Source of the DNA: an uncultured beta proteobacterium
GTDB lineage: Bacteria > Pseudomonadota > Gammaproteobacteria > Burkholderiales > SHXO01
Assembly (NCBI GenBank): GCA_963772865.1
Contig: CAVYZA010000034.1
Location: 291,550 to 355,549 of the forward strand
Reading direction: 5' to 3'
Length of the DNA: 64,000 nt
Each line of letters opens with the position of its first letter. Position 1 is the stretch's first letter. This document shows, one piece after another, positions 12,000 through 58,359 of this stretch. A program made the translations under genes and the position numbers. The notes beneath the pieces were generated by a model that saw only the letters and a list, made by a program, of their open reading frames with translations, did not search any database and was not told the origin of the DNA.

Positions 12000-13532
12000 C
12001 TATGCCGCGTCCATCGCCAGCAGCGCCTGGTTCAACGCCAGGGCCTGGTCGTGCCGGAGCACTCGATTGCGTCCCGCGGCCTTCGCTGCATACAGCGCCT
12101 GGTCGGCCTGCTTGATCAGCTCGGCCAGGGTGGTCGAGCCGTGCTGGATGGAAGCCACCCCGAAGCTCGCTGTGATGCGCACGTTCTCCCCGGGGACGAC
12201 CGAGGAACCGACGCCGCTTTCGATCTGTTTGCGCATGCGCTCGGCCATCTCCTGCGCCTGGTTGGCTTCGATGGCGCCGAGCAGCAAGCAGAACTCCTCA
12301 CCTCCGTAGCGGCACACGAGGTCGCCCGGGCGCACCGCGCTTGCCAGCGTCGTGGCCACGTTGCGAATGGCCTGGTCGCCGACGAGGTGGCCGTAGCGGT
12401 CGTTGATCGACTTGAAGTGATCGATGTCCACCATCAGGATGCACACGTTGGAGCGCTGCGCGGCGCAGTTGAGGAAGATCTGCTGCGACTGCTCAAGGAA
12501 CGCACGGCGTGTGAGGCTGCCGGTGAGCTGATCGTGGTTGGCCAGGCGCTTGAGCTCCTCGTTCTGGAGCTCGATCTTGCTCTTGGCCACCTCGAGCTGC
12601 GCCACCGAGTCCAGCAGGGCCTGGTTCATGTGCTCGACCATCGACATGTCGTCGAAGGTGATGAGACAGCCGCGCACCGTTTCGCGGTCATCGACGATCG
12701 GTGCGACGTTCATCACGATCTTCACCGGATCGCCGCCCTCCTGGGGAATCTTGATGCTCTCGCCGGTGACCGCGGTGCGCTCCAGCATCGCGCGGGTCCA
12801 CGGCGGCGGGCCGTCTCCGCACGCCGACGTGAGCCAGGCGAGATCCTTGATGCGCTTGCCGGTGAGCTCGCCCCCGGCGGAAGGATGCAGATTCCGAAAA
12901 GCACGGTTGGCGAGCAGCACGTGGCCCATCTTGTCGATCACGAGCACGCCTTCGGAGAGGGCGTCGAAGGCAGTGCGCACGCGGTCGGGAATGGCGGCGT
13001 TGGGATCCAGCCGCTGCAGGATCCGCTTGAGGTAGAGGTAGAACGCGCCGAAGCCAACCGTCAGCATCAGCAGCGTCAGGGCCACCCCGGGATACCTCAG
13101 CCACCCCAGCAGCGTCTGCGGCGTAGTGGGCCGATAGGCCACCTCCAGGCGCCCCCACATGTCCTTGCCGGAGTCGATGGGCACGAGCACGCTGGTGAGC
13201 GTGGATTTGTCGTTGGCCGGGGGAACCCAGTGTGTGGCGTGGTTACCGGTTTCGGCCACCACTTCGCCGTTCTTGCGCCGGACCGCGATCGACAGCACTT
13301 CCGGATCGCGCGAGATCACGGCGTGCATGGTTCGCCGCAGCGTTTCCCACTGCTCGGTCTGCACCAGCGCGGTCATCTGCACGGCCAGCGCTTCGCTGGT
13401 GCGCTTGCGTACGTGCTTGGCGACGTCGGCTTCGTCGGGAAGCAGGCCGAAGATGAGATCGGCCACCAGCAGCAGGAAGGCGACCAGGGAGATCAGCCCC
13501 ATGCTGATACGTGAGACAGGTCCGAGACGCAT
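12000..13532 (-). CDS. Diguanylate cyclase: 2-TM periplasmic sensor + PAS + GGDEF (GGEEF active site, RxxD I-site)
   Basis: 510 aa. The motif AVRPGDLVCRYGGEEFCLLL carries both the I-site (RPGD) and the active site. The N-terminal 230 aa are paralogous to the sensor of the histidine kinase at 34492..36993. Confidence 0.9.
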   Translation of the reverse strand: MRLGPVSRISMGLISLVAFLLLVADLIFGLLPDEADVAKHVRKRTSEALAVQMTALVQTEQWETLRRTMHAVISRDPEVLSIAVRRKNGEVVAETGNHATHWVPPANDKSTLTSVLVPIDSGKDMWGRLEVAYRPTTPQTLLGWLRYPGVALTLLMLTVGFGAFYLYLKRILQRLDPNAAIPDRVRTAFDALSEGVLVIDKMGHVLLANRAFRNLHPSAGGELTGKRIKDLAWLTSACGDGPPPWTRAMLERTAVTGESIKIPQEGGDPVKIVMNVAPIVDDRETVRGCLITFDDMSMVEHMNQALLDSVAQLEVAKSKIELQNEELKRLANHDQLTGSLTRRAFLEQSQQIFLNCAAQRSNVCILMVDIDHFKSINDRYGHLVGDQAIRNVATTLASAVRPGDLVCRYGGEEFCLLLGAIEANQAQEMAERMRKQIESGVGSSVVPGENVRITASFGVASIQHGSTTLAELIKQADQALYAAKAAGRNRVLRHDQALALNQALLAMDAA

Positions 13533-13565
13533 GTGTCGTCCTCTAACAGGCCGACCGAGTGAAAC

Positions 13566-14885
13566 TCATCCTGAAACGGCTCTGCAAGATCCGCACCGGC
13601 TTGGCGATCCGCCGCTCGACGCTCGCACTTTTACCATCGTTGACAAACCACGCTGGCGCGAATATCGCGGGCAAGTCACACGCTGGTCTCTTTTCCGGTC
13701 CTGCCAGGCGGACCTCGCACGCATCGGCCGCCTTAGCCGCGCTCGCTCTGCTCGCGCGCGCCGTGATCGGCGTGCGCGCCCTCCGAGCACGTTGGCGATG
13801 GCCAGCTCGTTGGCGTCGGCATCGCGATCATCGGGGTCGTACCACTTCTTATCCTCGTCCTCATCGCGCCCCACCACCGGCAAGGGATCGATGTGGCGCC
13901 ACGCCGGGGCCGAGGCCAGCAGGCTGCCCAATAGCCCGCTCACCCGGCTCGCCCACCACACCACACCCACGGAGAGCGCCATGCCGCCCAGCTGCACCTG
14001 CTCGAGCAGCACGTCGATGCGGTCCTTGGGCGCCTCCTCGGCCTCGGGGAAGGCCGGCCGGATATGCCAGTCCACCGGCACCGTGGAGAGGTACTGCAGG
14101 TTGGCCGGTGCTGCGGCCAGCAGTTCCAGGGCCGGGTCGATGTACGGGCCGGCCACGAAGTTGTTGAAGCTGGCCACCGGCTGGGTCGGCTTTTGCCGGC
14201 TCAGTGGCTGCAGCTGCATCTGGTTGACCTGCGCCTCGGGCGCATCGACGCGCCCAGGCGAATAGACCGCCGGGATCACGGGCGCAACTGTACTGGCTGA
14301 GGCCGGTGGTTCAGCTGGCGCTTCGGGTTTGGCCTGGGCTGGCGCAGGATTCGTCGACGGCTCGGCGGGTGGGGTGACGGGCACCACCAGGATCGTGCCC
14401 GCATCGAAGCTCACACCCGCGGCGAGCGGTCCGTGGCTGAGCGCCCCGTCGCTCACCGTGACCGCGTAACCGGGGGCCACGCGGCTGCCGTCGTGCACGA
14501 ACACCACCAGACCGCCTTGCACGTCGGCCTGGGTGAAGCTGCTGACAGCCACCCCCGGGGCGCTGGTGCGCTCGAAGTGCCCGTGGCTCACCCCGCTCAC
14601 GCTGAAGGTCAACGCGCCTGCGGGGTTGTCCACGTCGCTGGCGCTCAAGTTGGCCGCCGACAGCACCAGCGTCTCGCCCCGCCCGATGGTCAGGGTGTTG
14701 ATGCCGAGCACTGGGGCGTCGTCGACGTTGGCCACCGGGCCGGCATTGGTGCTGAGGAGGCTCTCGGTGCTGCCCTGCCCGTCGCTATAGGCGACACTGA
14801 CCTGAATCAAGCTGCCCACGTCGGCATCGCCCAGGGTGTAGGTGCTGAGGTCGCCCCGCCGATTACCACCCCGTTGCGCAGCCAC
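13566..14885 (-). CDS. Giant locus A, C-terminal fragment (cadherin-like domain, Pro-rich linker, TM module)
   Basis: ...VDDAPVLGINTLTIGRGETLVLSAANLSASDVDNPAGALTFSVSGVSHGHF...; then PPAEPSTNPAPAQAKPEAPAEPP; then GGMALSVGVVWWASRVSGLLGSLLASAPAWRHIDPLPVVGRDEDEDKK. The final ~60 codons are Arg-rich and doubtful. Confidence 0.75.
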   Translation of the reverse strand: MAAQRGGNRRGDLSTYTLGDADVGSLIQVSVAYSDGQGSTESLLSTNAGPVANVDDAPVLGINTLTIGRGETLVLSAANLSASDVDNPAGALTFSVSGVSHGHFERTSAPGVAVSSFTQADVQGGLVVFVHDGSRVAPGYAVTVSDGALSHGPLAAGVSFDAGTILVVPVTPPAEPSTNPAPAQAKPEAPAEPPASASTVAPVIPAVYSPGRVDAPEAQVNQMQLQPLSRQKPTQPVASFNNFVAGPYIDPALELLAAAPANLQYLSTVPVDWHIRPAFPEAEEAPKDRIDVLLEQVQLGGMALSVGVVWWASRVSGLLGSLLASAPAWRHIDPLPVVGRDEDEDKKWYDPDDRDADANELAIANVLGGRARRSRRARAERARLRRPMRARSAWQDRKRDQRVTCPRYSRQRGLSTMVKVRASSGGSPSRCGSCRAVSG

Positions 14886-17570
14886 TGGTAGCTGAAGGCA
14901 CCCAGCCCGTCGGCATCGGCGATGCTGCTGGTGTCAGCCGTCAAGGTCTGGTCTTCGGTCCACGTGCCGGCGATCGACAACCGCTCCGGTGGGCGCATCG
15001 TTGACGTTGGCCACCGCCGCGGTCTGCGCCGAGGTGACACTCTCGGGAGTGCCCTGCCCGTCGGTGTAGCTCACCTGCACGCTGATCTGCGTGCCCACAT
15101 CGGCATCGCCCAGGGTGTAGGTGCTGCCCGGTAGCGGTTGCGATGACCGCACCGTTGCGCAGCCACTGGTAGCTGAAGGCACCCAGCCCGTCGGCATCCG
15201 CAATGCCCGCCGTGTTCGCGGTCAAGGTCTGATCTTCTGTCACCGTGCCGCTGATGGTGGGCACCCCGGTGGGGGCATCGTTGACGTTGGCCACCGCCGC
15301 GGTCTGCGCCGAGGTGACACTCTCGGGAGTGCCCTGCCCGTCGGTGTAGCTCACCTGCACGCTGATCTGCGTGCCCACATCGGCATCGCCCAGGGTGTAG
15401 GTGCTGCCCGTAGCGGTTGCGATGACCGCACCGTTGCGCAGCCACTGGTAGCTGAAGGCACCCAGCCCGTCGGCATCCGCAATGCCCGCCGTGTTCGCGG
15501 TCAAGGTCTGATCTTCTGTCACCGTGCCGCTGATGGTGGGCACCCCCGTCGGGGCATCGTTGACGTTGAGCCACCGCCGCGGTCTGCGCCGAGGTGACGA
15601 CTCTCGGGAGTGCCCTGCCCGTCGGTGTAGCTCACCTGCACGCTGATCTGCGTGCCCACATCGGCATCGCCCAGGGTGTAGGTGCTGCCGGTAGCGGTTG
15701 CGATGACCGCACCGTTGCGCAGCCACTGGTAGCTGAAGGCACCCAGCCCGTCGGCATCCGCAATGCCCGCCGTGTTCGCGGTCAAGGTCTGATCTTCTGT
15801 CACCGTGCCGCTGATGGTGGGCACCCCGGTGGGGGCATCGTTGACGTTGGCCACCGCCGCGGTCTGCGCCGAGGTGACACTCTCGGGAGTGCCCTGCCCG
15901 TCGGTGTAGCTCACCTGCACGCTGATCTGCGTGCCCACATCGGCATCGCCCAGGGTGTAGGTGCTGCCCGTAGCGGTCGCGATGACCGCACCGTTGCGCA
16001 GCCACTGGTAGCTGAAGGCACCCAGCCCGTCGGCATCCGCAATGCCCGCCGTGTTCGCGGTCAAGGTCTGATCTTCTGTCACCGTGCCGCTGATGGTGGG
16101 CACCCCGGTCGGGGCATCGTTGACGTTGGCCACCGCCGCGGTCTGCGCCGAGGTGACACTCTCGGGAGTGCCCTGCCCGTCGGTGTAGCTCACCTGCACG
16201 CTGATCTGCGTGCCCACATCGGCATCGCCCAGGGTGTAGGTGCTGCCGGTAGCGGTTGCGATGACCGCACCGTTGCGCAGCCACTGGTAGCTGAAGGCAC
16301 CCAGCCCGTCGGCATCCGCAATGCCCGCCGTGTTCGCGGTCAAGGTCTGATCTTCTGTCACCGTGCCGCTGATGGTGGGCAACCCCGTCGGGGCATCGTT
16401 GACGTTGGCCACCGGCCGCAGTCTGCGCCGAGGTAACGCTCTCGGCAGTGCCCTGCCCGTCGGTGTAGCTCACCTGCACGCTGATCTGGGTGCCCACGTC
16501 GGCATCGCCCAGGGTGTAGGTGCAGGCCGTCGCGCCCGCGATGCGTCCAGGTACGCCGCGTTGCGCAGCCACTGGTAGCTGAAGCGCGCCCAGGCCGTCG
16601 GCATCGCCGATGCCGCTGGTGTCCGCGGTCAGGGTCTGATCTTCCGTGACTGTGCCGCTGACGGTGGCACGCCCGCTCGGCGCGTCGTTGACGTTGGCCA
16701 CCGCCGCGGTCTGCGCCGAGGTGACGACTCTCGGGAGTGCCCTGCCCGTCGGTGTAGCTCACCTGCACGCTGATCTGCGTGCCCACATCGGCATCGCCCA
16801 GGGTGTAGGTGCTGCCGGTAGCGGTCGCGATGACCGCACCGTTGCGCAGCCACTGGTAGCTGAAGGCACCCAGCCCGTCGGCATCCGCAATGCCCGCCGT
16901 GTTCGCGGTCAAGGTCTGATCTTCTGTCACCGTGCCGCTGATGGTGGGCACACCCGTGGGGGCATCGTTGACGTTGGCGACAGGCCCCACATCGGCGCTA
17001 GTTAAGCTCTCTGCACTGCCCTGACCATCCGTGTAGCTCACGCTGACCTGAATCAGGTTGCCCACGTCGGCGTCGCCGAGAACATAGGTGGAAGCCGTCT
17101 CACCCGTGATGTCGTTCCAGGTTACGCCGCTGTCGGTAGAACGTGCCCACTGGTAAGCGAAGCCGCCGAGGCCATCCGCATCGCCGATGCTGCTGGTGTC
17201 GGCGGTGAGGGTCTGATCTTCCGTGACTGTGCCGGTGACGATGACCGCGCCGCTGGGTGCGTCATTGACGTTGCTGACCGGCCCCAGGCTCGGGCTGCTC
17301 AGGCTCTCCGCGTTACCTTGTCCGTCGACATAGGCCAGGCTCATCTGAATGAATGCGTTGACGTCGGCGTCGCCCAGCGTGTAGCTGGACCCCGTGGCTC
17401 CAAGAATCGGGTTCCAGGTGGTCCCGCCGTCGGTGGAGCGCGCCCACTGATAGGTGACGGCACCCAGGCCGTCGGGGTCGCCGATGCCACTGGTGTCGGC
17501 GGTGAGCACGGCGTCCTCGATCGAGATGCCGATGATCCCGGCCGCGCCGGTTGGCGCATCGTTGACCGGC
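14713..17570. repeat. Coding tandem repeats: 8 near-identical 279-bp (93-aa) units plus 2 diverged ~297-bp units
   Basis: The VNDAP-encoding motif (..gcrtcgttgacgttgg..) recurs near 17560, 17265, 16968, 16688, 16392, 16115, 15836, 15556, 15277, 14998 and 14720. Confidence 0.9.
15519..16412 (-). CDS. Giant locus A, fragment 3 (three 93-aa repeats)
   Basis: VANVNDAPTG(L/V)PTISGTVTEDQTLTANTAGIADADGLGAFSYQWLRNGAVIATATGSTYTLGDADVGTQISVQVSYTDGQGTPES is repeated three times. Confidence 0.75.
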   Translation of the reverse strand: MANVNDAPTGLPTISGTVTEDQTLTANTAGIADADGLGAFSYQWLRNGAVIATATGSTYTLGDADVGTQISVQVSYTDGQGTPESVTSAQTAAVANVNDAPTGVPTISGTVTEDQTLTANTAGIADADGLGAFSYQWLRNGAVIATATGSTYTLGDADVGTQISVQVSYTDGQGTPESVTSAQTAAVANVNDAPTGVPTISGTVTEDQTLTANTAGIADADGLGAFSYQWLRNGAVIATATGSTYTLGDADVGTQISVQVSYTDGQGTPESRHLGADRGGGSTSTMPRRGCPPSAAR

Positions 17571-20500
17571 GTGATGGCGATGGTGACGCTGGCCGAGGCC
17601 GTCTGCGCACCACCCGATCCGGTGTTCCCGGAATCGTCCACGCTCAACGTCAACGTGTCGGAGGCCGGCGGCGTGTCGCTATTGATTACATAGCTGGCCG
17701 TGGCTGCGAAGTTGCCGGCCAGCAGGTCGTTGATCTGCGCCAGCGTGCCCGTCAGCGTAATGCTGCCGCTCCCGTTGCCGGCCACTGCGACACCGGTGGT
17801 GCCAGCGCTGACGTTCAGCGTGCCGGACACGACCGACAGACTCGCGGTGAGGATCCCCGCGCCCGCATCCAGGTCGGCAATGCTCAGGCCGGTTCCCTCC
17901 AGCGCCAGGCTGGTCTGCTCGGTCGCGGCGTAGCTCGCCGCTGCGATCGTGGCTGAGGGCGTATCGTTGACTGCAGCGATGTTGATCGTCGCAGTGGCCG
18001 ATCCGCTCTGCGCACCGCCCGAGCCGGTGTTGCCGCCATCGTTCACGCTCAAGGTCAGCGTGTCGCTCGCCGGAGGCATGTCGGAGTTGATAAGGTAGGA
18101 CAGCGCACCGCCGCCCGCACCCACCAGCAGGTCGTTGATCTGCGTGAGCGTACCGGTGAGGGTAATGCTGTTGCTCCCGTTACCCGCTATGCTCACGCCG
18201 GTACCGCCGGCGGTCGCAGTCAGCGTACCCGACACCACCGAAACCATTGCTGTGACGCTGGTCGTGCCGGCATCCACGTCGGCAATGCTCAGTCCCGTTC
18301 CGGACAACACCAGTGGAATCTGTTCGGCGGCGACGTAGCTGGTTGCGCCGATAGTGGCCTCGGGCGCGTCGTTGACGGCGCTGATGTTGATGGTGGCGCT
18401 GTCCGAGCCGCTCAGAGCTCCGCCCGAGCCGGAGTTGCCACCGTCGTTCACGCTGAGCGTGAGCGTGTCCGCCGTGGCCGGCGCGTCGGAGCTCATGATA
18501 TAGGCAGCCGTGGCCCCCAGGTTGCCTGCCAGCAGGTCGTTGATCTGCACCAGCGTGCCGGTCAGGGTCACGCTATCGGTGCCCGAGCCGCCTATGGTCA
18601 CGCCGGTGGTCCCCGCAGTGACGGTAAGCGCACCCGAAACTACCGACAAGGTGGCGGTGATGTCCGCACCGCCCGCGTCCGGATCCGTGATCGACAGCCC
18701 GGTGCCGTGCAGCACCAGCGCCACCTGCTCAGTGGCCGCATAGCTTGCCGGCGTAATCGTCGCCGTGGGCGCGTCGTTGACCGCCCCGATGTTGATGGCG
18801 ACGCTGGCCGAGCCGATCTGCGCACCGCCCGAACCGGTGTTGCCACCATCGTTCACGTTCAAGCTCAGCGTGTCGCTCGCCGGCGGAGTGTCGGAGTTCA
18901 TGATGTAGCTCGCCGTGCCACCCAGGTTGCCGGCGAGCAGATCGTTGATCTGCATCAGCGTGCCGGTCAAGGTCACGCTATTGCTCCCCGAGCCGCCCAC
19001 CACCACACCAGTGGTCCCTGCGTTGACCGTGAGGGTTCCCGAGACGACCGACAAGGTGGCCATGAGACTGGCCGATCCCGCGTCCAAGTCGCCGATCGAC
19101 AACCCAGTGCCCTGCAGTGCCAGGCTCACCTGCTCGCTCGCGCTGTAGCTGCCCGCCGCAATGGTTGCGCTGGGCGCGTCGTTGACGGCCGCAATGTTGA
19201 TGGTGGCTGCATCCGAGCCGCTCTGTGCTCCGCCAGAGCCGCTGTTGCCCGCATCGTCCACACTCAGCGTCAGCGTGTCGGTCGCCGGTGGCGCGTCGGA
19301 GCTGATCGCGTAGACCGCGGTGGCGCCCAGGTTGCCGGCCAGCAGGTTGTTGATCTGCGCCAGCGTGCCCGTCAGGGTTACGCTATTGGTGCCTGAGCCG
19401 CCGATCGTGACGCCAGTGGTCCCAGCGGTGACGGTGAGTGCGCCCGAAACCACCGACAAGGTGGCCGTAACGTCGGCGCCGCCGGCATCAGGATCCGCGA
19501 TCGACAGCCCGGTCCCGTGCAGGGTCAGGCTGGTCTGCTCGGCCGCTGAGTAGGTGGCGGGCGTGATCGTCGCCGTGGGCGCGTCGTTGACCGCCCCGAT
19601 GTTGATGGCGACGTTGGCCGAGCCGCTCTGCGCGCCGCCTGAACCAGTGTTGCCACCATCGCTTACGCTCAAGGTCAGCGTGTCGCTGGCCGGCGGCGTG
19701 TCGGAGTTGATAACGTAGCTCGCCGTACTACCGAGGTTGCCCGCCAGCAGATTGTTGATCTGCACCAGCGTGCCGGTCAGGGTCACCGTGTTGCCGCCTG
19801 AGCCCCCCACCACCACACCGGTGGTGCCCGCGTTGACAGTGAGCGTGCCGGAGACCAGCGACAAGGTCGCGGTGAGACTGGCAGGGCCCGCATCCGCGTC
19901 GCTGATCGACAGCCCGGTGCCGTGCAGTGCGAGGCTCACCTGCTCGGTTGCGCTGTAGCTGCCCGCGGTGATGGTTGCGGTGGGCGGGTCGTTGACCGCT
20001 GAGATATTAATGGTGGCGCTGTCCGAGCCGGTCTGCGCACCGCCAGAGCCCGTGTTGCCACCGTCGTTCACACCCAGGGTCAGCGTATCGGTCGCCGGCG
20101 GCGCATCCGACCCGATGATGTAGGTTGCGGTGGCCCCCAGGTTGCCTGCCAGCAGGTCATTGATCTGCACCAGCGTGCCGGTCAGGGTCACGCTATCAGT
20201 GCCCGAGCCGCCTATGGTCACGCCGGTGGTCCCCGCAGTGACGGTAAGCGCACCCGAAACTACCGACAAGGTGGCGGTGATGTCCGCACCGCCCGCGTCC
20301 GGATCCGTGATCGACAGCCCGGTGCCGTGCAGCACCAGCGCCACCTGCTCAGTGGCCGCATAGCTTGCCGGCGTAATCGTCGCCGTGGGCGCGTCGTTGA
20401 CCGCCCCGATGTTGATGGCGACGCTGGCCGAGCCGATCTGCGCACCGCCCGAACCGGTGTTGCCACCATCGTTCACGTTCAAGCTCAGCGTGTCGCTCGC

Positions 20501-36989: not shown

Positions 36990-36993
<4 letters not shown>

Positions 36994-49615: not shown

Positions 49616-51726
49616 GAAGGCGTCGGATTTGCTGCCGCTCGAGCCGTTGGCTGCCTGATACGCATTCGGGAGCGCCGTTGTGAAGCGTGCTGGAGGTGCT
49701 CTCCCCGACCACCACGGCGTTGCCGGCAGCGCGTGACCTCCATGTTGTAGACGGCGTCGAAGCCGCTGCCGCCCAGAAACGTCGAATAGACGAGCCCGCT
49801 GCCGCTGGGATTGAACTTGGTCACGAAGGCCTCGGCGCCGGCGACGCTCGTATCGAACGCGCCCACCAACGGAAAGCCGGTCGCGTTGTTCGTATAGCCG
49901 GCCACGTAGGCGCTGCCCGAGCTGTCTACCGCAACCCCGTAGCCGATGTCCGCGTCGCCGGATCCGCCCAGAAGCGTCGAAAAGATCAGGCCTGTGCCGG
50001 AGGCGTTCAGCTTGACCAGGAAGGCGTCCTGATTTCCACCCAGCGTCGAATCGAAGGGTGAAACCAGAGTAAAATCGGACGACTTCGTATAGCCCGTAAT
50101 GTACGCGTTGCCAGCCGCGTCGACGGCCAGTCCGTAGCCCTCGTCCTCCTTGTCGCCGCCGATGTAGGTCGAGTAGATCAGGGTGCCCAGATCCGGGCTG
50201 AACTTGCTGACAAAGACATCTTTATTGTTGAGGGCGAGGGAGAAGGCGCCGACGCTGGTCGGAAAATCATTGGAGTTCGTGTAGCCGGTCACGTATACAT
50301 TGCCGGCCGCGTCCGTATCCATGTTCCAGATCTGCTCGCCGTTGCTGCCGCCGAGGTAGGTGCCGTAGGACAGGATTGGATCGATCACTAGCTGGCGCGA
50401 GGCGTCGTAGCTGCCTACTTCGAAGCCGACGCTGCCGTCCTCGAGTAGCGTGTACCGGCTGGTCACCCACTCGCGTCCGGCGGGGCCGTCCTGATAGGCG
50501 ACCGGGGCCTGAAAGGCGATGGTCTGTCCGGTCTCGCCCAGACTCAAGATGAGGTTGCCGTTGGCGTCGACGGAGACGCTCTGGGCCCCTTCGAAGCCGA
50601 AGCGAATTGCGCTGGCATCCGCGCCCGCCTTGACGATGAAGTCGTACTCGAGCTGCCGCTGGTTCCCGTAGTAGCGCAGGTCGATGCCGTCGTAGACCTC
50701 GTCGTATCGCACGGCGCCGTAGTTGGCCACGTCACGCCGCCACTGGTCCTCGCCGCCCACCAGATAGTTGCTCTTCGCCTCCAGCAGGTTCTCGCCGCTC
50801 GCCGCCGGGTCGTCGTTGGCGCCGCGCAGGTCGAGACGCACGGCATAGCCGCCGGTTTCGTTCTGCAGACCGATGACCGCGTCGCCGTCGGTCAGCCACA
50901 CCGTGTAGCCGTTGCCACGCGCGAGGAAATCGACGTCCCCGTCGCTCTGCCCGGCGTTGACCTCGAACGCGAGCGGGCTGCTCACTACGATGGGCTCGGT
51001 GGCAGTGGCGTCCGAGGTGGCAAGATCCAGCAGGCTGGCAAACTGGCTTTGCGCAGCCGTCTCCACGACCACCGGGGTATCCACCAGCCCGAGCTCGAAC
51101 TCGAGGTCCCAGTCGCCGCCAAGCTGCTGGGCGCCGGTGGGATCGGTGCTCGCCGCGACGTCGGCACCGGTCAGGCGCGCCATGGCCTCCAGCAGCGAGC
51201 GGCCTTCGGCGGAGCCGGCCACGTCGCAACCATAGATCAGCAGGTCGGCCTGCTCGGTGAGGGCATCGCCCCACGCACGAATCTTCGCCGCGTTGGCAAG
51301 CAGCGAATCGAAGTCGAGTGTCGTGCTGCCCAGCTGCACCGCGCCAGGCTCGCCGTGAGAGAGGATGTGCACCGCGTCTATATCGCTGCGGCCGGCGAGC
51401 GCCTCGCTGATCTGCTGCACGCCGTCGCGGGCCGGGTCGAGCTGAACCACCTCGATGTCGCGTTCGCTGGAGTTCTGCAGGCCTTCGACGAGCTCCCGCT
51501 GTCCCGGGGTGCTGCTGTCGACGAATACCAGCTCGTGGCGCCGGGGCTTTGCGTCGATCGTCGAATCGCTGTTGAACTCGCCGCTTGGATCGAGGGTGCG
51601 TTGCTCCGTCGCGGGTGTGAGAACAGGCGTGTCCAACCCTGCCGGCGCGAAGTCGGCAGAGTAGAGAATGCGCGGCTCGATCTCCTCGACGAGAGGGCGG
51701 CGGCGGGGCTGGGCGCGACGTTCCAT
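49360..51726 (-). CDS. Giant locus B, fragment 1 (leader, DUF4347, SBBP-like propeller repeats)
   Basis: Starts MERRAQPRRRPLVEEIEPRILYSADFAPA. The DUF4347 block reads HELVFVDSSTPG...VHILSHGEPGAVQLG...LLIYGCDVAGS...GADVAASTDPTGAQQLGGDWDLE. Repeats of the form YLGG...G.AVD..GN.YVTGYT.S.DFP follow. The good frame ends near 49735. Confidence 0.85.
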   Translation of the reverse strand: MERRAQPRRRPLVEEIEPRILYSADFAPAGLDTPVLTPATEQRTLDPSGEFNSDSTIDAKPRRHELVFVDSSTPGQRELVEGLQNSSERDIEVVQLDPARDGVQQISEALAGRSDIDAVHILSHGEPGAVQLGSTTLDFDSLLANAAKIRAWGDALTEQADLLIYGCDVAGSAEGRSLLEAMARLTGADVAASTDPTGAQQLGGDWDLEFELGLVDTPVVVETAAQSQFASLLDLATSDATATEPIVVSSPLAFEVNAGQSDGDVDFLARGNGYTVWLTDGDAVIGLQNETGGYAVRLDLRGANDDPAASGENLLEAKSNYLVGGEDQWRRDVANYGAVRYDEVYDGIDLRYYGNQRQLEYDFIVKAGADASAIRFGFEGAQSVSVDANGNLILSLGETGQTIAFQAPVAYQDGPAGREWVTSRYTLLEDGSVGFEVGSYDASRQLVIDPILSYGTYLGGSNGEQIWNMDTDAAGNVYVTGYTNSNDFPTSVGAFSLALNNKDVFVSKFSPDLGTLIYSTYIGGDKEDEGYGLAVDAAGNAYITGYTKSSDFTLVSPFDSTLGGNQDAFLVKLNASGTGLIFSTLLGGSGDADIGYGVAVDSSGSAYVAGYTNNATGFPLVGAFDTSVAGAEAFVTKFNPSGSGLVYSTFLGGSGFDAVYNMEVTRCRQRRGGRGEHLQHASQRRSRMRIRQPTARAAANPTPSWRCSIRQAPDSSMALSWAAATTTSATRWLWAPVARSTSAAIPRPATSMSPPAQCKGPKAAARTASSRSSTLLRPGLLRWSIRPT

Positions 51727-51902: not shown

Positions 51903-52030
51903 GGGAGAGGGCTGGGGTGAGGGTGAACTGCGCGCGACGCAGCCCCCTCTCCCTACCCTCTCCCGCGAGGGGAGAGGGACCTTTCTGTCTGGCCCTCACC
52001 CTACCCTCTCCCGCAAGCGGGAGAGGGACC
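51903..52030. repeat. REP-like intergenic palindromic elements (three related copies)
   Basis: ccctaccctctcccgcgaggggagagggacc and ccctaccctctcccgcaagcgggagagggacc are direct copies with internal 7-9-bp hairpins. gggagagggctggggtgagggtg is present in inverted orientation. Confidence 0.7.
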
Positions 52031-52055: not shown

Positions 52056-54038
52056 CTATTCGCCGCGGCCGGCAAAGGACAGGCGGGCTTCGCTGTTGCG
52101 GTCCTGCTTGAGGAGCAGCTTGCGCTGTGCACGATGGCGGCGCTCCTCCTGCCGCTGCGGGAGGCGCGCGAGGAACGCCCCGAACCGCGCGGGCACCAGG
52201 CGGCGCGCGCCAGCCAGCGCGATCGCCGTGCTGCGCAAGGGCGCCGGCAGGGAGCGGGCGAGCAGCCCGTCCTGCAGGCTGAGCACCGTCTCGACGCTGC
52301 CCGGATCGCCCTGGCGAGCGGCGCGGCCGTGCAGCTGCCGGTCGATGCGCGGGGAGCTGTTGTGCTGGCAGCAGATCACGTGCAGGCCGCCACGCTCGGC
52401 CACGCCCGGCGCCAGCGGGATGTCGGTACCGCGGCCGGCCATGTTGGTGGTGACGGTGACGCGGCCGGCCTCGCCGGCGCGCGCGACCATCGCGGCTTCC
52501 TCGCTGTCCTGGCGCGCGTTGAGCACCTGATGCTCGATGCATGCCGCCGCGAACCGGATGCTGAGCTGATCGCTGTCGGCGACCGAATCCGTGCCGATGA
52601 GCACCGGCCGCCGCGCCTGCTGCAGCTCGCGCACGCGCTCGACGACCGCCTGCCACTTGTCCTCGCCGGTGACGAACACACGCATGCCCAGATTGCGGCG
52701 CTGCGACGGTCTTGCGCAGCGGCACGCGCTGCACGCGCAGGCCGTACACGCTCTCGAGCTCCGCCCGAGCTTCGGTGAGGGTCCCGCTCATTCCGCACAA
52801 TCGCAGATAGCGCGGGAAGAAGCGCTGATAGGTGATCTGCGCGATGGTTTCCATCTCGCCACTGGGCGGGCAGCCTTCTTTTTCTTCCAGCAGTTGCTGC
52901 AGTCCGCGCGACCACACCCGGCCCGGCGCCACACGCCCGGTGGTCTGGTCGATCATCAGGATCTTGCGATCGCGCACCAGGTAGTGCTGATCGCGGAACA
53001 GCAGATGATGGGCCACCAGCGCCGAGACCGACGATCTCGTCGCGGTGGCGGCGGTCCTGCCAAAGCCCGCCCATGCCCTTGGCCCGCTCGACCAGGAGCG
53101 TGCGTCCGGCGCCCGTCAGCTCGGCCTGCTGAGTCGAGGGATCGAGACGAAAATCGCGGCCCGGAACGAGGTGCAAAGCGATGCGCAACGCTTCCTGGAC
53201 ATAGGCCTGCTGCTGCGGGTTCACGCGCGGTTGCGACAGGATGAGCGGGGTGCGCGCTTCGTCGATCAGGATGCTGTCTGCCTCGTCTACCAATGCCATC
53301 CACAACCCGCGCAGCAGCAGCCCGCTCGACTCGGCCTGACCGGTTTCGAGGTGACGCACGCGGTCGTGCAGCTCGCTGGGCAGGTGTCGCCGCACCAGAC
53401 GGTCGCGCAGATAGTCGAAGGTCAGCTCCTTGGCGGTACAGTAGGCGATGTCGGCGCCGTAGGCAGCACGGCGTTGAGCCTGATCCAGCGGGCGCGTCAC
53501 CGCGCCCACGGTCAGCCCCAGCAGGCGATAGACCGGGCCGAGGTGGGCTGCGTCGCGATCCACCAGGTAGTCGTTGGAGGTGACGACGTGTACCGGCGTG
53601 CCGGCCAGTGCCGCAGTGGCTGCCGCGACCGCGGCGGCCAGGGTCTTCCCCTCGCCGGTGGCCATTTCCGCCAGACGGTTGCCGAGCATGATGCGTGCAG
53701 CGATGAGCTGAGTGTGAAACTGCTGCATGCCCAGCGCTCGCGAGGTCGCCTCGCGCACCAGCGCGAAGGCTGCCGCCATTGCCGGGTCGGTGAAGCCCTC
53801 GGCGCCGAGGTTGGCACGCACCTCCCGTACGCGCGCCGCAAAGGCAGATGCGGACAGTCCGCGCGCGTCCTTGGAATGCGTGTCTACCGCGTCGAGGAAC
53901 TGTTGCTGGCGGCGTTGGCCGAGCGCGCGCGGCAGCTCCCAACCCGAGTAGGGTCGCGCAGCGTGGTCGCCTGTCGTGGCTGCGCTCCGGATAGGGACCC
54001 AGCGCCGTCGCGCGGCTGGACAGGACGGCCGCTCGCAT
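52056..54038 (-). pseudogene. SecA-family ATPase paralogue (~660 codons, short form), interrupted by at least two 1-nt frame changes
   Basis: SecA motifs are spread over three frames: MATGEGKTL and LVDEADSILIDEARTPLI (ORF 52376..53821); HHLLFRDQHYLVRDRKILMIDQTTGRV (ORF 51868..53016); TNMAGRGTDI and RIDRQLHGRAARQGDPG (ORF 52056..52685). The shifts are near 53028 (gtcGgtctcg) and near 52712. The N-terminal start is unresolved (53821 GTG, or further upstream to 54038). Confidence 0.8.
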
Positions 54039-54140: not shown

Positions 54141-56285
54141 TCAGCTCTGCGGATTGAACTGCTTGAGGAAGAGCTGCAGCAGCCGGCGTTGCCACTGGAT
54201 GGCCAGCGGGCTGGCACCGTGATCGAAACGCACCCAGACCCTGCCACCCACGCGCTGCAGCGGCGTCGCCGTGACTCGCACGTCGAACAGGAACACCGGC
54301 TCCAGGGTACGCGTGCCCTGATTGTCGGCGGGGTCGGTCACGACAGGACCGCCGGAACGGTCACCGAGCGCCGCGGTAGGCAGGATCGCGGTCGCCGCAG
54401 GCACCTCGCCGGTGAGCGCCGCGCTGATGGCCTCGCCCGGCTGATCGGCAAGGCTCACCGCCACAGCGCGGGTGCTGGTGCGGATGATGCCGGCGTCCTG
54501 CTGCGGCACCGCGACCTTCACGCTGATGTCTTCGCTGCGCAACACATGGGCGATGACGGCCCCGCGCGCCAGATAGCTCCCTGGCAGGTCCTGGGCTCGC
54601 GGCATCACCAGCTTGCCTTCGACCTGACTGGTAACTTGCAGGGCTGTCAGCCGCCGCTGGGTTTCCTTCAGCTCCTCACGCGTCGCATCGGCCTCTTCCC
54701 GAATCGACGCAGCGCGGCCGGCGTTCACGTCCAGCATCTGGTTGTACTCGATGTCCAGTGCGCTCAAGCGCGCCTGCACCGCGGCGTGCTTGGCCACCAG
54801 ATCGGGATCGCTCAAGGTGACCAGGAGGTCGCCGGGCTTGACCAGCTGGCCGTCCTGCGCGTGCACCTGTTCGACGAAGCCGCCGGTCTCAGCGCGCACG
54901 CGAGCCTTCTCGGGCAACCAGACCACGCCTTGGGCCATGGTCGAGAACGGGACCGGCAGCACGTACAGCGCCACCAGCGTCGCGACTGCGATGCCGCTCG
55001 CAATCGCATAGGCACGCGAGCGGCTGCGGGCCAGCTGCGGCGCGGTGCGCAAGAACTGCATGACATTGTGCAAGGGCTTGAGCACCATCCCGACCGCGAT
55101 GAACAGGCCTGCCGCGACGCCGAGCCAGAAGGAGTAGGCGCCGGCCCAAAGCACGATCAGGATGGAGACGAACCAGCGATACGCGAACGACAGCACCGCG
55201 TAGCACAGCAGCAGCATCGGCTCGCCCTTGGCGGTCACCGGTGAGGTCGCGTCGTGCACCTTCAGCAGATAGCGTTGCGCCAGGTAAGCCACATACTGGT
55301 TGCTGCGTGGGCCCAGGTTGGGCACGTCGAGCACGTCCGACAGCACGTAGTAGCCGTCGAACCGCAGCAGCGGGTTGCCGTTGAACAGCACGGTGGAGAC
55401 GCCGCCGATCACCATGACCACGAAGCACATCTGGCGCACCAGGCCGTCTTCGACGTTCAGCCAGACAAACAGAGCCAGCGCCGCCAGGAACAGCTCGACC
55501 ATGATGCCGGCCGCGCCGACCAGCGCGCGCCGGTGCTTCTCCGGAAACGCCGAGGCCGCCGAAGCATCGACGAACGGCACCGGAACCAGGAGCAGCAGGC
55601 TGATGCCGGTCTCGCGCACCTCGCCGCCCCAGGCTTTCACCGTCAGTCCATGACCCAGCTCGTGCACCACTTTGACGAGCGGATACATGATCCACATGAG
55701 CAGCAGGAATTCGGGCGTGAGCATGTGGACCGAAGCGAAAGCCCGGATCGGCGCCCAGTTCGTGCCGACCGACAACAACCCGAGTACCACCACCACCGCC
55801 CAAGCTGCCAGCGCCACCGGGTGGACCAGCGCGCGGCCGACCGGCGCGAGCCGCTCGAGCATCTTGTCGGGGTCGAACAAGGTCACGCGGAACGCCAGCG
55901 GATTGAGCATGGCGATGCGGCGCTTGCGGTTCTTCTCGAACCGCCGCCGGAACAGCTCGGCGACATTGGGCGTGATCTCACACTGCAGCAGATCGTTGTC
56001 GCTCAGCTGGCAGAGGATCTCGATGGTTTCGTCCTGGGTCGGCGTGTTCTCGCCGAGCTTGTTGAGCAGCGAGTGCCAGATCTCGTCGGTCGAACGCTTG
56101 CCGTCCATGCGACCGATGAAGTGGAACGTGTTCTCGTCGACCCGATGATGGCGGCCGGTGCTGGTGTCCTGCAGCAGGTACCAGGCCTGGTCGCGGTAGA
56201 CGTGGCGCGACACACGCACGTGACTGCGCAGGCGCGGGTGAATTCCGGCGACGCGGTACCAGCGGGAGGAGAAGAGGGAATCCAT
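54141..56285 (-). CDS. Fusion protein: PqqD-like N-terminal domain + M50 (site-2-protease) intramembrane metalloprotease + HlyD-type periplasmic adaptor
   Basis: 714 aa. HExxH reads VVHELGHGLTV and the second S2P motif reads FNGNPLLRFDGYYVL, set within multiple TM helices. The C-terminal ~300 aa have a lipoyl-hairpin/coiled-coil/barrel pattern (GGFVEQVHAQDGQLVKPGDLLVTL...EGKLVMP). The N-terminal ~100 aa (..AWYLLQDTSTGRHHRVDENTFHFIGRMDGKRSTDEIWHSL..) resemble PqqD by eye. Confidence 0.8.
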   Translation of the reverse strand: MDSLFSSRWYRVAGIHPRLRSHVRVSRHVYRDQAWYLLQDTSTGRHHRVDENTFHFIGRMDGKRSTDEIWHSLLNKLGENTPTQDETIEILCQLSDNDLLQCEITPNVAELFRRRFEKNRKRRIAMLNPLAFRVTLFDPDKMLERLAPVGRALVHPVALAAWAVVVVLGLLSVGTNWAPIRAFASVHMLTPEFLLLMWIMYPLVKVVHELGHGLTVKAWGGEVRETGISLLLLVPVPFVDASAASAFPEKHRRALVGAAGIMVELFLAALALFVWLNVEDGLVRQMCFVVMVIGGVSTVLFNGNPLLRFDGYYVLSDVLDVPNLGPRSNQYVAYLAQRYLLKVHDATSPVTAKGEPMLLLCYAVLSFAYRWFVSILIVLWAGAYSFWLGVAAGLFIAVGMVLKPLHNVMQFLRTAPQLARSRSRAYAIASGIAVATLVALYVLPVPFSTMAQGVVWLPEKARVRAETGGFVEQVHAQDGQLVKPGDLLVTLSDPDLVAKHAAVQARLSALDIEYNQMLDVNAGRAASIREEADATREELKETQRRLTALQVTSQVEGKLVMPRAQDLPGSYLARGAVIAHVLRSEDISVKVAVPQQDAGIIRTSTRAVAVSLADQPGEAISAALTGEVPAATAILPTAALGDRSGGPVVTDPADNQGTRTLEPVFLFDVRVTATPLQRVGGRVWVRFDHGASPLAIQWQRRLLQLFLKQFNPQS

Positions 56286-56427
56286 AGTCTCAGGGGCTAG
56301 GGGCTAGGGACTGGAGGCTAGGCGAGAGGGTCTGAGGCTTGGCGCTTGGAACTGACGTGACCAACGCTGCACACCTGTGGCGGACAGTCACGGCAGGCGT
56401 GAGGCCACTCGGTCACTGCTTCCTGGA

Positions 56428-58359
56428 TCACCCGATCCACGACCACACCATCAGGCGCAGCCAGCCGTACACGCGGTGGGTGAGGATCCACAGCAGCGAG
56501 CGCGAGCCGGCCTCGATCTTGGCCACGCCCATCAAGCCCGGCCGCAGCTCGGCGTCCTTGACCTGGAGCTTCGCCTCGACCTCGAAGTAGTTGCGGCCCT
56601 GCCCGGCGGTGGCCACGGGCGTGATGCGATCCACCACCAGGGGGCGTGCATCCCCGGGCAGCGCGGTGAGCGCCAGGCTGCCGGGCTGTCCGGTGTGAAC
56701 ATCGCCGACGTCGCGCTCGTCGACCTCGACGATGACGCGGAAATCGTGCTCGGGCGCGAGCGTCATCAGGGAATCGCCCTTCTTGACCGGTGCACCCAGG
56801 GTTTGCGTGAGGTCTCCGGTGATCACAATGCCGTCGAAGGGGGCCGTGAGCTTTACGCGCTGGAGCTGGATCTCCGTCAACTGCTGTTGCGCGCGCGCCT
56901 CTTCCAGCTTGGCGAAGATGATGCCGACCTCGGTACGGTCCTGCTTGGTCAGCGCGGCGCCGTAGGAGCTCTCAAGCTGCGCGACCGCGCTCTGCGCCTT
57001 GCGCTGCTCCAGCTTCAAGTCCTCGTCGGCCAGCTCGGCCAGCAGCTGGCCGGCCTTGACGCGGTCTCCAGGGCGCACGTACGCCTGCTTGAGATAGCCG
57101 TCGCCGGGTGCCACCATGACGCGCTGGATCGAGCCTTCCAGGCGGGCAGGCGCGCTGACCCGGTAGTCGCCGGGAATGAAGGCAGCGGCAATCAGCGCGA
57201 CCAGCGCTGAACCCACGCCAATCTTGAGTGCGCGGTGGCCGGGACCGAACAGCGGAGCCACCGCTTCGCCCAGCGCGCTCACGATCTTCAGCGGCCACGG
57301 CCGGTCGGACGCATGCTTGCGCTCGATCAAGGGGCCGAGCAGCGCACCGATGTTCTCGCACAGCGTGAACTCGGTGCGGGTCAGTTGCTCGGTCCGATTG
57401 CGCTCGAACATCATCGCGCCGACGGCTTTGCCATTCTTCACCAGCAGCACCGTGCAGATCGCCTGTGCACCGTGGCGCTGGGCGAGCGTGGTATGCGCTC
57501 GATCCACGCGCGGCTGTGCGCCCTCGGGCTGCGGGAACAGCAAGGTGGAGCCCTGCCAGATGGTCTCTTCCATGGCGGCGCCGATATCGCGCAGCAGGCC
57601 CTGGTTGGCCTTGAATTCGGTGCTGTGCGACAGGGCGTGCACCTTGACGTGGCGGCGCCCCATGAGACCCACGCTCACACGGTCGCAGGCAAAGATCTCC
57701 GCCAGCTCGGTGGCGAAGGCCCCGGCGCCCGCCGTGAAGTCGTCGTGCGCCTCGATAGTCGCCAGCAGATGCAGCAGGCGCACCGAGTTGGGCGCCGGCA
57801 TTTCCTGGGTCTTGTCCGGATCGTTGTGCGCACCGGACGGCGCTTTGAGGGTCGCGGCAGGCATGGGCTGAGGAACCGAAGGAATGGATCGGGCCGGAAA
57901 TTGCGGAGTAGATGCGGTGGATGCGTAGTTCTGCGCGGCTGCGCTGGCAGCGGCCTTCGCCGCTGGCAAGCTGGAGCGCATCGATGCTTCGAAGCTCTCG
58001 GCACCGCGCTGCAGGCTGGTGACGGCCGCCTGGGACGGCTGCGCCATCTGCGGGCTGAGCAGCACCGCGAGCGCACCGATGGTCTTGCCCTTGACCTGCA
58101 GCGGGCAGGAGATCAGCGGCCCGACCGGCGTAGGGCGTTCGGCGCCGTTCAGCCGGTCCTGCGCTTGCGTTTGCTGGCGCTCGAAGGCGACCTTGGCGGC
58201 GTCTTCCAGCTCCTGCGTGGCGCGCCCGCCCGGCGGCCAGGACGCTGCGGAGGACAGACCGCCGTCGCGGCGCGATGCAAGCATCACGACGCCACGGGTG
58301 GCGCCGTTGATCTGGCCGCACTGGCTCTCGAGCCAGTCCTGGATGACCGTCTGCTGCAT
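56428..58359 (-). CDS. GAF-domain + TM + HlyD-type periplasmic adaptor protein
   Basis: 643 aa. The cytoplasmic N-terminus has GAF-like segments (FATELAEIFACDRVSVGL...AICTVLLVKNGKAVGAMMFER). The TM helix is IGVGSALVALIAAAFI. The HlyD pattern follows (GYLKQAYVRPGDRVKAGQLLAEL, coiled coil, LTAPFDGIVI). There is a C-terminal hydrophobic helix. Confidence 0.8.
   Translation of the reverse strand: MQQTVIQDWLESQCGQINGATRGVVMLASRRDGGLSSAASWPPGGRATQELEDAAKVAFERQQTQAQDRLNGAERPTPVGPLISCPLQVKGKTIGALAVLLSPQMAQPSQAAVTSLQRGAESFEASMRSSLPAAKAAASAAAQNYASTASTPQFPARSIPSVPQPMPAATLKAPSGAHNDPDKTQEMPAPNSVRLLHLLATIEAHDDFTAGAGAFATELAEIFACDRVSVGLMGRRHVKVHALSHSTEFKANQGLLRDIGAAMEETIWQGSTLLFPQPEGAQPRVDRAHTTLAQRHGAQAICTVLLVKNGKAVGAMMFERNRTEQLTRTEFTLCENIGALLGPLIERKHASDRPWPLKIVSALGEAVAPLFGPGHRALKIGVGSALVALIAAAFIPGDYRVSAPARLEGSIQRVMVAPGDGYLKQAYVRPGDRVKAGQLLAELADEDLKLEQRKAQSAVAQLESSYGAALTKQDRTEVGIIFAKLEEARAQQQLTEIQLQRVKLTAPFDGIVITGDLTQTLGAPVKKGDSLMTLAPEHDFRVIVEVDERDVGDVHTGQPGSLALTALPGDARPLVVDRITPVATAGQGRNYFEVEAKLQVKDAELRPGLMGVAKIEAGSRSLLWILTHRVYGWLRLMVWSWIG

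Follow-up and report, generated by a model that had tools for sequence, protein, structure and literature searches.

What unites two giant repeat proteins, three membrane-fusion adaptors, a SecA-like ATPase and a set of two-component and cyclic di-GMP (c-di-GMP) signaling genes in one stretch of DNA is the question raised by positions 12000 to 58359 of the window analyzed here, the whole 64,000-nt stretch (G+C content, 66%) from contig CAVYZA010000034.1 of an uncultured betaproteobacterium. Every convincing gene between 58359 and 12000 lies on the minus strand, and a preliminary description made from the letters alone had read them, in the direction of transcription, as a series running from a GAF/HlyD gene through M50/HlyD, SecA-like, giant (B), kinase, regulator, small adaptor and second giant (A) genes to a diguanylate cyclase; domain searches and motif inspection recover this order (Table 1). 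We find that the island is a widely conserved gene set, and we consider it probable that it forms a single dedicated system for secreting and displaying the two giants as surface proteins, with a sensory circuit of its own. The identity of the cargo, the mechanism of secretion and the direction of signaling are what we infer. Gene identities come from Pfam and NCBIfam domain searches, coordinates are those of the whole window, and L-numbers (L001, etc.) designate the related loci that were compared.

Gene order in relatives carries much of the argument. A profile of the M50-HlyD protein retrieved 580 relatives from species-representative genomes, and the best 80 were examined with 10-kb flanks. 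These 80 loci include members of the Burkholderiales, Thiobacillus, Accumulibacter, Zoogloea, Methylophilaceae, Gammaproteobacteria, Nitrospira and Myxococcota, with Piscinibacter sakaiensis 201-F6 and Uliginosibacterium flavum among the cultured carriers. M50-HlyD comes directly after the GAF-HlyD gene in 72 of 75 loci and directly before the SecA-like gene in 70 of 74, and the small adaptor lies downstream of the SecA-like gene in 41 of 57. The start of a DUF4347 giant occurs within 10 kb of the apparatus in 32 of 48 loci, and 35 of 41 giants open with a LEPR-like motif, E..E.R.L(Y/F/L)SA. GAF-HlyD, M50-HlyD, the SecA-like ATPase and the small adaptor make up a single apparatus of four genes, the canonical unit is one such apparatus followed by a giant, and apparatus and giants with the LEPR-XLL leader, DUF4347 and C-terminal anchor are syntenic across Betaproteobacteria, Gammaproteobacteria, Nitrospira and Myxococcota.

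A more distant version of this arrangement is found on plasmid pMSC49a of the alphaproteobacterium Methylosinus sp. C49, where a gene for an 8,847-aa giant precedes the four apparatus genes, with a TolC-family gene after them. This giant has a LEPR leader (...FDTLEPRVLLNAD) and no DUF4347, which points to the leader as the feature that is shared with the apparatus, and the adjoining TolC-family gene means that the outer-membrane component missing from our window is supplied in at least one lineage. On the same plasmid, the SecA-like orthologue (L167, 22213-24129; 49% identity over 633 residues) bears the RefSeq label "prepilin peptidase," probably a misannotation, and a small DUF3467 gene stands between the giant and the apparatus.

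The architecture of the four apparatus proteins is suggestive of export. GAF-HlyD combines one or more cytoplasmic GAF domains with a single predicted transmembrane (TM) helix (residues 377 to 395) and a periplasmic membrane-fusion (adaptor) domain. M50-HlyD is laid out as a PqqD (RRE)-like N-terminal domain, an M50-type intramembrane HExxH metalloprotease domain, in which the motif reads HELGH, and a MexA/AcrA-like adaptor with an α-hairpin; in its AlphaFold2 model (predicted local distance difference test [pLDDT] score of 83), the C-terminal half superposes on MexA, AcrA and MacA, hairpin included (Foldseek, E of ~1e-11). Against NF041824, the model for the daptide HExxH protease, it scores 175 bits over positions 1 to 373 of 379, the cutoff being 300, which suggests that it is related to this family of daptide-type leader peptidases without being a member. 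The PqqD domain (RRE, leader binding) is present at the N terminus of 10 of 13 M50-HlyD homologues, orthologues including plasmid-borne ones are named "PqqD family" or "M50 family" by PGAP, and the RRE-M50 region defines a large family of 2,905 clusters at E values of up to 1e-30.

The SecA-like gene matches the SecA profile in three frames that are consecutive on it (positions 15 to 262, 286 to 394 and 391 to 600). Its intact 659-aa orthologue in L001 aligns only with residues 51 to 570 of the 841 residues of Bacillus subtilis SecA, so that the first nucleotide-binding domain (NBD1), the preprotein cross-linking domain (PPXD) and NBD2 are kept, with the Walker A and DEAD motifs, and the helical scaffold, wing and two-helix finger are missing. 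Models of SecA2 match at 1e-20 to 1e-53, and all SecA and SecA2 models remain far under their cutoffs. Judged by its sequence, the protein is a secondary, truncated SecA-family ATPase that falls outside the canonical SecA/SecA2 architecture and cutoffs. The small adaptor has a predicted N-terminal signal anchor. An overlapping 428-aa open reading frame (ORF) had hinted at a frameshift in this gene, which we reject: the 428-aa ORF has no family match, and the 312-aa frame matches full-length relatives, indicating that the adaptor is intact. The island thus encodes three adaptor domains of the membrane-fusion type, and no HlyB-type ABC transporter was found in it.

This set of genes has been noticed before. 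Kamneva, Poudel and Ward (PLoS One, 2015; PMC4452313) described computationally a "secondary SecA_DEAD" module of Proteobacteria, Nitrospirae and others, comprising a GAF-plus-HlyD protein, a Peptidase_M50-plus-HlyD protein, a second SecA_DEAD protein and an HlyD/biotin-lipoyl protein, and proposed for it a role related to type I secretion systems (T1SS), in which ATP comes from SecA_DEAD instead of an ABC transporter and the M50 protein is the membrane part. All four genes are present in order in the window, the SecA-like one being frame disrupted in this copy. That study names no cargo or regulators, cadherin, adhesin, GGDEF and histidine kinase all being absent from its text. In the literature that we searched, we found neither later work on the four-gene module nor anything on LEPR-XLL or DUF4347 giants. 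What appears to be new is thus the association with LEPR-XLL/DUF4347/anchor giants, the PqqD (RRE) domain, the coupled kinase with its REC-EAL partner and the sensor cyclase, together with the assignment of the leader as a signal, the reading of DUF4347 in the giants as a domain like the cysteine protease domain (CPD) of toxins, and the C-terminal anchor.

The two giants share a leader, DUF4347 and a C-terminal anchor. Their leaders have the form RRRP-x-VEEIEPRILYSAD and are joined to DUF4347 by a linker of variable length; no hydrophobic or Sec signal peptide was found at either N terminus, nor did Pfam reveal an RTX/HemolysinCabind domain or a C-terminal T1SS signal on them. Giant A scores 19.6 bits over residues 16 to 36 against the LEPR-XLL model NF012209 (cutoff, 17), and giant B aligns with the same invariant leader columns, E..E.R.L.SA. 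Beyond the leader and DUF4347, the N-terminal part of giant B contains DUF7948 and an SBBP propeller, followed by cadherin-like/Big_9, β-helix and LDL-receptor-B repeats, and giant A contains DUF2341, Laminin_G_3 and cadherin-like arrays that correspond to 405-bp and 279-bp tandem repeats in Tandem Repeats Finder (TRF). The true stop of giant A may lie near 13733.

DUF4347 (PF14252) is unambiguous in both proteins, scoring 190 bits in giant A and 184 bits in giant B over all 164 profile positions (1 to 164; cutoff, 24.6). The core of its AlphaFold model has pLDDT values of >90, and Foldseek matches it to caspases and legumain (E of ~1e-4, probability of ~1.0), the best match by TM-score (0.41/0.56) being Tce1/PA0256 (PDB 9qpe). 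Tce1 is a DUF4347 type VI effector that has been proposed to be a cysteine protease like the TcdB CPD (PMC8262886, PMC13323088). In an alignment of 36 sequences, His120 and Cys167 never vary and His124 scarcely does. Given the modeled fold, it is possible that DUF4347 in the giants is a caspase/CPD-like domain and a putative cysteine protease. At the opposite end, both giants have a hydrophobic stretch that contains an RGG and leads into PAW..DP.PV and an acidic tail. Intact relatives finish in a matching manner (the module was seen in L018, L027, L042, L045, L083 and L087), no Pfam or NCBIfam model matches these C termini, and the module looks like a previously undescribed anchor or sorting domain.

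The same association emerges from the sensor side. A profile of the kinase input module, built from six sequences in place of a nine-sequence sensor alignment (A3) that was too divergent for a metagenome scan, recovered 80 metagenome loci. In 70 of 72 of these, the kinase has a giant's C-terminal anchor encoded upstream at a distance of less than 450 nt, and the stop codon of the giant overlaps the kinase start (ATGA/GTGA) in 29 of 76, the two lying within 8 nt of each other in 49 of 76. This is therefore a kinase family dedicated to the giants, with translational coupling between them very probable. All 71 assessable kinases are hybrids (REC-Hpt), and of 42 loci, 31 have a REC-GGDEF-EAL gene next and another 6 a gene for a REC-only protein. 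Further along come the small adaptor (15/28), a second giant (8/28) and the M50 cassette (9/28). The window's own succession of giant, kinase, regulator, small adaptor and giant recurs in ten loci (L087, L088, L090, L091, L096, L098, L099, L104, L116 and L130), extending to 44% sensor identity. A divergent subfamily with ~31 to 33% identity (L131, L135, L137, L151, L154 to L156, L161 and L164) shows another order, namely giant, kinase, (regulator), small adaptor, GAF-HlyD, M50-HlyD and SecA-like, with the apparatus after the regulators.

In the window, the kinase consists of two TM helices flanking a periplasmic loop of ~120 aa, a PAS domain, HisKA (HEIRTP at residue 332), HATPase, REC and Hpt, and its ATG overlaps the TGA of the last reading frame of giant B, as the preliminary description had claimed. 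The regulator that follows has a degenerate GGDEF domain (GGNGF, no RxxD) and an EAL domain with the motif set expected of an active phosphodiesterase, namely EAL (GAEALLRW), ELTES (LELTES) and DDFGTGYSS. The terminal cyclase has GGEEF and an RxxD I-site (RPGDLVCRYGGEEF at residues ~401 to 414) and is predicted by its active-site motifs to be a functional diguanylate cyclase. The proposal that the two sensors have paralogous inputs is borne out by a 296-residue module of two TM helices, periplasmic region and PAS domain that cyclase and kinase share at 31% identity (E = 4e-50), and the motifs likewise agree with the outputs suggested for them, c-di-GMP synthesis by the GGEEF enzyme on one side and a phosphorelay to the EAL enzyme on the other. 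There is also, as stated earlier, no LapD/LapG module: the LapD model reaches 58 to 130 bits against a cutoff of 1020, and the proteins scanned gave no BTLCP domain. An Rfam gathering scan of the whole window gave no c-di-GMP riboswitch or other known RNA.

Table 1. Features of the island, listed in the direction of transcription
Feature	Position	Strand	Size and state	Assignment
GAF-HlyD	56428-58359	minus	643 aa, intact	Pfam GAF, HlyD_3/HlyD_D23
M50-HlyD	54141-56285	minus	714 aa, intact	Pfam Peptidase_M50 and HlyD
HELGH motif of M50-HlyD	55650-55664		residues 208-212	HExxH
SecA-like ATPase	52056-54038	minus	frame-interrupted	three frames match SecA profile
Three REP-like GC-rich hairpins	51903-52030		SecA-like/giant B spacer	GGGAGAGGG/CCCTCTCCC
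Giant B	36990-51726	minus	~4,900 codons, frame-broken	Pfam
Leader of giant B	51640-51690			LEPR-XLL
DUF4347 of giant B	51028-51531			PF14252
Putative anchor of giant B	37182-37304			C-terminal module
Hybrid histidine kinase	34492-36993	minus	833 aa, intact	Pfam, TM prediction
REC-GGDEF-EAL (GGDEF degenerate)	32649-34475	minus	608 aa, intact	Pfam, translation, motifs
47-bp tandem array	32209-32399		4.1 copies, 99% identical	TRF
Small adaptor (RND_mfp type)	31215-32153	minus	312 aa, intact	TIGR01730, 146 bits (cutoff, 95)
Terminator-like hairpin	31001-31023	minus	10-bp stem, T-rich tail	3' of small adaptor; consensus scan
Mini-ORF	30743-30829	minus	28 aa	MKAGPARKRRPVVEEIEPGILYSNQPDG; repeats N-terminal motif of giants
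Giant A	~13566-30341	minus	~5,500 codons, frame-broken	Pfam
Leader of giant A	30234-30296			LEPR-XLL
DUF4347 of giant A	29628-30134			PF14252
Putative anchor of giant A	13872-13988			C-terminal module
PAS-GGDEF diguanylate cyclase	12000-13532	minus	510 aa, intact	Pfam, NCBIfam
GGEEF motif of cyclase	12291-12305			GGEEF

The preliminary description had gone further and interpreted the island as a duplicated design, that is, two parallel units, each with its adaptor gene or genes, a giant and a sensor. One part of this stands, the paralogy of the sensor inputs; the notion of two complete adaptor-giant-sensor units does not, the adaptors belonging to one apparatus. It is true that each giant in the window precedes a sensor with the same input module, that the small adaptor comes directly before giant A, and that leader, DUF4347 and anchor are common to both giants. 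However, in relatives, the small adaptor takes its place beside the SecA-like gene as the last of the four genes of one apparatus (41 of 57 loci), there is one SecA-like and one M50-HlyD gene only, and many loci have a single giant. Nor is the position of the cyclase fixed: its orthologues occur inside the cassette in L061, L073 and L088, usually before the giant (L061, L088) rather than after it. We therefore regard two parallel units as quite unlikely. The window looks instead like a single apparatus split by the insertion of giant B, the kinase and the regulator between the SecA-like gene and the small adaptor, which gives it its two-unit look; the same split layout is seen in L116 and L130, and in L020, a kinase and regulator occupy this place with no giant.

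On the basis of these architectures, the system probably works as follows. The N-terminal LEPR leader of a giant would be bound by the PqqD-type domain of M50-HlyD, and the SecA-like protein, which seems from its sequence to have lost the parts that dock on SecY and to have retained the ATPase and the preprotein clamp, would drive the unfolded giant, N terminus leading, through a membrane assembly around the M50 domain, a tunnel formed by the three adaptors and a TolC-type outer-membrane channel encoded elsewhere. The N terminus might be processed by the HExxH site of the M50 domain, by the caspase/CPD-like DUF4347 or by both, and the C-terminal anchor would halt transfer and tether the fiber. 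The kinase and the paralogous cyclase, as membrane sensors, would register what state the giant or its anchor is in: the kinase might sense the giant through the anchor or through its own periplasmic loop and activate the EAL enzyme by phosphorelay, leading to c-di-GMP hydrolysis, and the GGEEF cyclase would oppose it by c-di-GMP synthesis. The GAF domain on the first adaptor is a candidate point for feedback by a nucleotide signal or for a gate on export. Because of the tight coupling of giant to kinase, we favor a direction in which display sets c-di-GMP over one in which c-di-GMP sets display. A bolder version of this proposal is that the genes define a distinct, so far unclassified secretion pathway of diderms, in which a SecY-independent SecA-like motor and an RRE-M50-adaptor recognize the LEPR-XLL leader and thread giants N terminus first through an adaptor/TolC duct, the anchor-tethered fiber being read directly by the coupled kinase as an extracellular antenna (a contact or tension sensor) that sets c-di-GMP; we advance it tentatively, as an outcome that we would not bet on.

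Several observations weigh against the view that the island is one secretion and display system. Giant B scores 16.4 bits against the LEPR-XLL model, just under the cutoff, the TM-scores for DUF4347 are modest (0.3 to 0.56), and the N terminus of the window's own M50-HlyD gives no PqqD match even at E values of up to 10. No TolC-family outer-membrane factor or pore-forming transporter is present in the window or conserved in the betaproteobacterial and gammaproteobacterial loci; a TolC-type component may be encoded elsewhere in the genome. To our knowledge, the M50 protease fold has no known role as a protein-conducting channel. About one-third of the apparatus loci have no giant within 10 kb, and in three (L026, L035 and L078), the SecA-like gene is absent and M50-HlyD adjoins the small adaptor, with the giant next; the motor may be elsewhere or dispensable there. 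Scans of the window identified no c-di-GMP receptor (PilZ, I-site protein or riboswitch), the motor and both cargo genes are frame disrupted in it, and we found no experimental work on any component in the literature searched.

Some of these points would also fit a model in which the giants take a different path across the envelope, for example an unlinked ABC-type T1SS, and the cassette only processes, anchors or quality controls them, its task being, for instance, to cut off the leader or to pull out stalled chains. M50 proteases cut proteins and are not channels, the cassette lacks a pore component, and the three loci without SecA-like genes point the same way. Yet the giants lack the RTX or C-terminal T1SS signal that Pfam would recognize, three adaptors with TolC-docking hairpins and the linked TolC gene in Methylosinus are hard to explain without transport, and the MsbA-like ABC gene adjoining the island (9180-11087) has no counterpart in 160 related loci, making this route in our estimation unlikely. 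The resemblance of the PqqD/RRE-plus-M50 combination to daptide and epipeptide leader peptidases, along with the 28-aa leader-only ORF in the window, could be taken to indicate a system that matures or exports small ribosomally synthesized and posttranslationally modified peptides (RiPPs), with the giants as mere neighbors. We consider this very improbable, as the leader motif sits on the giants themselves, the cassette has no modification enzymes, and no conserved small precursor gene was found, mini-ORFs being seen only where giants are frame split or cut by a contig end. Finally, the preliminary description had named a lack of conserved order in relatives as what would mark the adjacency of giants, adaptors and signaling genes as accidental. 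In favor of accident, one can cite only that GGDEF/EAL genes are generally abundant in genomes of this kind; the gene order is strongly conserved, in synteny statistics from both the apparatus and the sensor sides, and chance adjacency of unrelated genes is thereby excluded for practical purposes. Thus, we retain a single secretion and display system with its own circuit as the preferred interpretation.

Whether the copy in the window is itself functional is a separate matter. Neither giant, as a third-codon-position G+C (GC3) frame plot and stop-codon logic reveal, is the single ORF that the earlier account had taken it for. By stop codons alone, no fewer than 4 shifts of frame are needed to read through giant A and no fewer than 7 to read through giant B, and the Viterbi path of a codon model places ~10 indel events in giant A and ~9 to 11 in giant B, of which those at 37861/37790 are probably unreal, as they lie inside the polyproline triplet repeat of giant B. 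That repeat (37806-37861) is a (GGC)n/(GGT)n run encoding ~22 consecutive prolines, where slippage could occur and frame calls could be ambiguous. Relative to the intact orthologue in L001, a metagenome contig with ~86% DNA identity to the window, the SecA-like gene has three 1-nt insertions (53973, 53023 and 52710, by tblastn and DNA alignment), all in nonrepetitive sequence and none in a homopolymer. Giant A has an extra C at ~23544 compared with five sibling copies of its 405-bp repeat, and the frame jumps of giant B are apparent relative to the intact giants of L001 (>3066 aa by gene call, 2599 aa of it read stop free here) and L087 (2556 aa). In a 405-bp repeat of giant A (22965-23039), a compensated +1/-1 indel pair leaves ~25 codons out of frame without a stop.

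These ~20 indels in cargo and motor genes imply that the system is inactive in this organism or that the sequence is locally erroneous, and unless the indels are sequencing errors, the window copy is a poor model of the system. The first of these options, in which the locus is a decaying relic with real frameshifts, its giants and motor no longer being made and its regulators and adaptors kept for other roles, concerns the state of this copy and not the nature of the system. It draws on the uneven spread of the lesions, with ~20 in the giants and SecA-like gene as against zero in the 10.9 kb that code for the kinase, regulator, cyclase and three adaptors (by our calculation, P of ~0.004 for such clustering if ~20 indels were uniform over the island), on the placement of the SecA-like insertions outside repeats and homopolymers and on the existence of intact orthologues. 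On the other hand, the lesions are all single-base indels, mostly insertions, and no nonsense codon or larger deletion was seen; natural decay seldom leaves so restricted a spectrum, which is what errors in a long-read consensus typically produce. Moreover, the SecA-like protein is more similar to its L001 orthologue (86 to 96% identity) than is the DNA (84.5%), hence purifying selection was at work until very recently. One or two indel events also occur in the flanks, including one in the gene for a periplasmic binding protein: this Peripla_BP_6 gene (1465-3236, minus strand) changes frame near 1925, one ORF covering profile positions 1 to 217 and another 243 to 317, so the island is not strictly the only place with disrupted frames. 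Other long-read contigs of metagenome-assembled genomes (MAGs), L005/L016, L006/L021 and L014, have orthologous giants split into many ORFs, and in L005, the kinase is split as well, from which it follows that fragmented giants are common in long-read MAG assemblies. Weighing both sides, we see decay as a serious contender for this copy, at slightly less than even chances.

Several characterized systems resemble parts of the island. The Lap system of Pseudomonas (LapA, the LapBCE T1SS and LapD/LapG) combines a giant repeat adhesin, adaptor-dependent export, surface retention and c-di-GMP enzymes. The island likewise encodes giant repeat proteins, adaptors and c-di-GMP enzymes, and with a putative outer-membrane duct, it would in outline work much as a T1SS/Lap system does; unlike Lap, it has no ABC transporter, LapD, LapG/BTLCP or RTX signal, and its giants seem, from their sequences, to use an N-terminal recognition element, a C-terminal anchor as the tether and a cysteine-protease-like domain on the adhesin itself. 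In terms of a classical T1SS, the adaptors are there, whereas the ABC transporter, a TolC in the window and the RTX signal are not, and the giants end in a hydrophobic anchor and an acidic tail instead of an RTX signal as in T1SS substrates. The accessory Sec system (SecA2/SecY2) of Gram-positive bacteria has a dedicated second SecA-family motor encoded beside a very large serine-rich repeat adhesin. The island has a comparable second motor beside a giant but no SecY2 or Asp proteins; its partners are adaptors and an M50 protein, and its hosts are diderm. With peptidase-containing ABC exporters and RiPP leader peptidases, it has in common an N-terminal leader, a dedicated recognition domain and the probable removal of the leader by an export-coupled membrane protease, while differing in the fusion of the M50 domain to an adaptor, a presumed substrate of ~5,000 residues and a SecA-like motor in place of an ABC motor. 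[quoted passage not shown]

Giant adhesins shape biofilm formation and surface colonization, and we know of few export routes for them that are understood, namely T1SS/Lap, the type V secretion system and accessory Sec. Carriers of the cassette include organisms of environmental or technical weight: Accumulibacter, Zoogloea, Thiobacillus, Nitrospira, methanotrophs, rhizobia and the polyethylene terephthalate-degrading Piscinibacter (Ideonella) sakaiensis. To what was an orphan cluster, our analysis adds a likely class of cargo, a likely targeting signal and a likely leader-binding domain, as well as a possible self-processing domain, a membrane tether and a dedicated two-component/c-di-GMP circuit, and the resulting testable hypotheses bear on a possibly new mechanism of secretion and on adhesin-based surface sensing.

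The spacers of the island contain additional elements, which the preliminary description had largely placed correctly. The repetitive extragenic palindromic (REP)-like hairpins between the SecA-like gene and giant B are present there and at no other site in the window, a terminator-like hairpin was predicted after the small adaptor by a consensus scan, and the leader-only mini-ORF is present and shares the leader of the giants; the period of the tandem array is 47 bp by TRF rather than the 48 bp reported. With a 32-nt match at 91% to the leader DNA of giant A, the mini-ORF appears to be a relic copy of a giant's leader that is not conserved. Equivalents are absent from the 160 loci except where giants are frame split or cut by a contig end, and we accordingly rejected it as a conserved small substrate. 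The array and the REP hairpins, tried as conserved regulatory elements, were rejected in the same way, having no match in the 160 loci. All three kinds of element are lineage specific and lie outside the conserved design. The 495-nt spacer between the regulator and the small adaptor (32154-32648) folds far better than its shuffles (z = -7.1), and each 47-nt unit of the array in it comprises a palindrome, CACGCGCAGCGTG, and a CCCCTCC/GGAGGGG hairpin.

All-against-all clustering of ORFs from the 160 loci uncovered no further conserved component, such as an outer-membrane factor or ABC transporter, near the cassette and returned only known families and antisense shadow ORFs. On the left flank, the MsbA-like ABC exporter, an HD protein, a 587-aa protein of no known family and a DUF3857-transglutaminase/TPR protein were considered as parts of the system and dismissed, no homologue being present in these loci; the limits of the island proposed at the outset, 12000 to 58359, are therefore correct. 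The DUF3857 and transglutaminase-core ORF overlaps the TPR ORF (2846-5931, minus strand), with a frame change near 3645; the overlap represents two genes or another frameshift, and the protein, which has no counterpart in related loci, is not LapG-like. Just beyond either end of the island, the spacers contain 22-bp tandem repeats, with 2.6 copies at 11912-11968 and 2.0 copies at 59485-59529.

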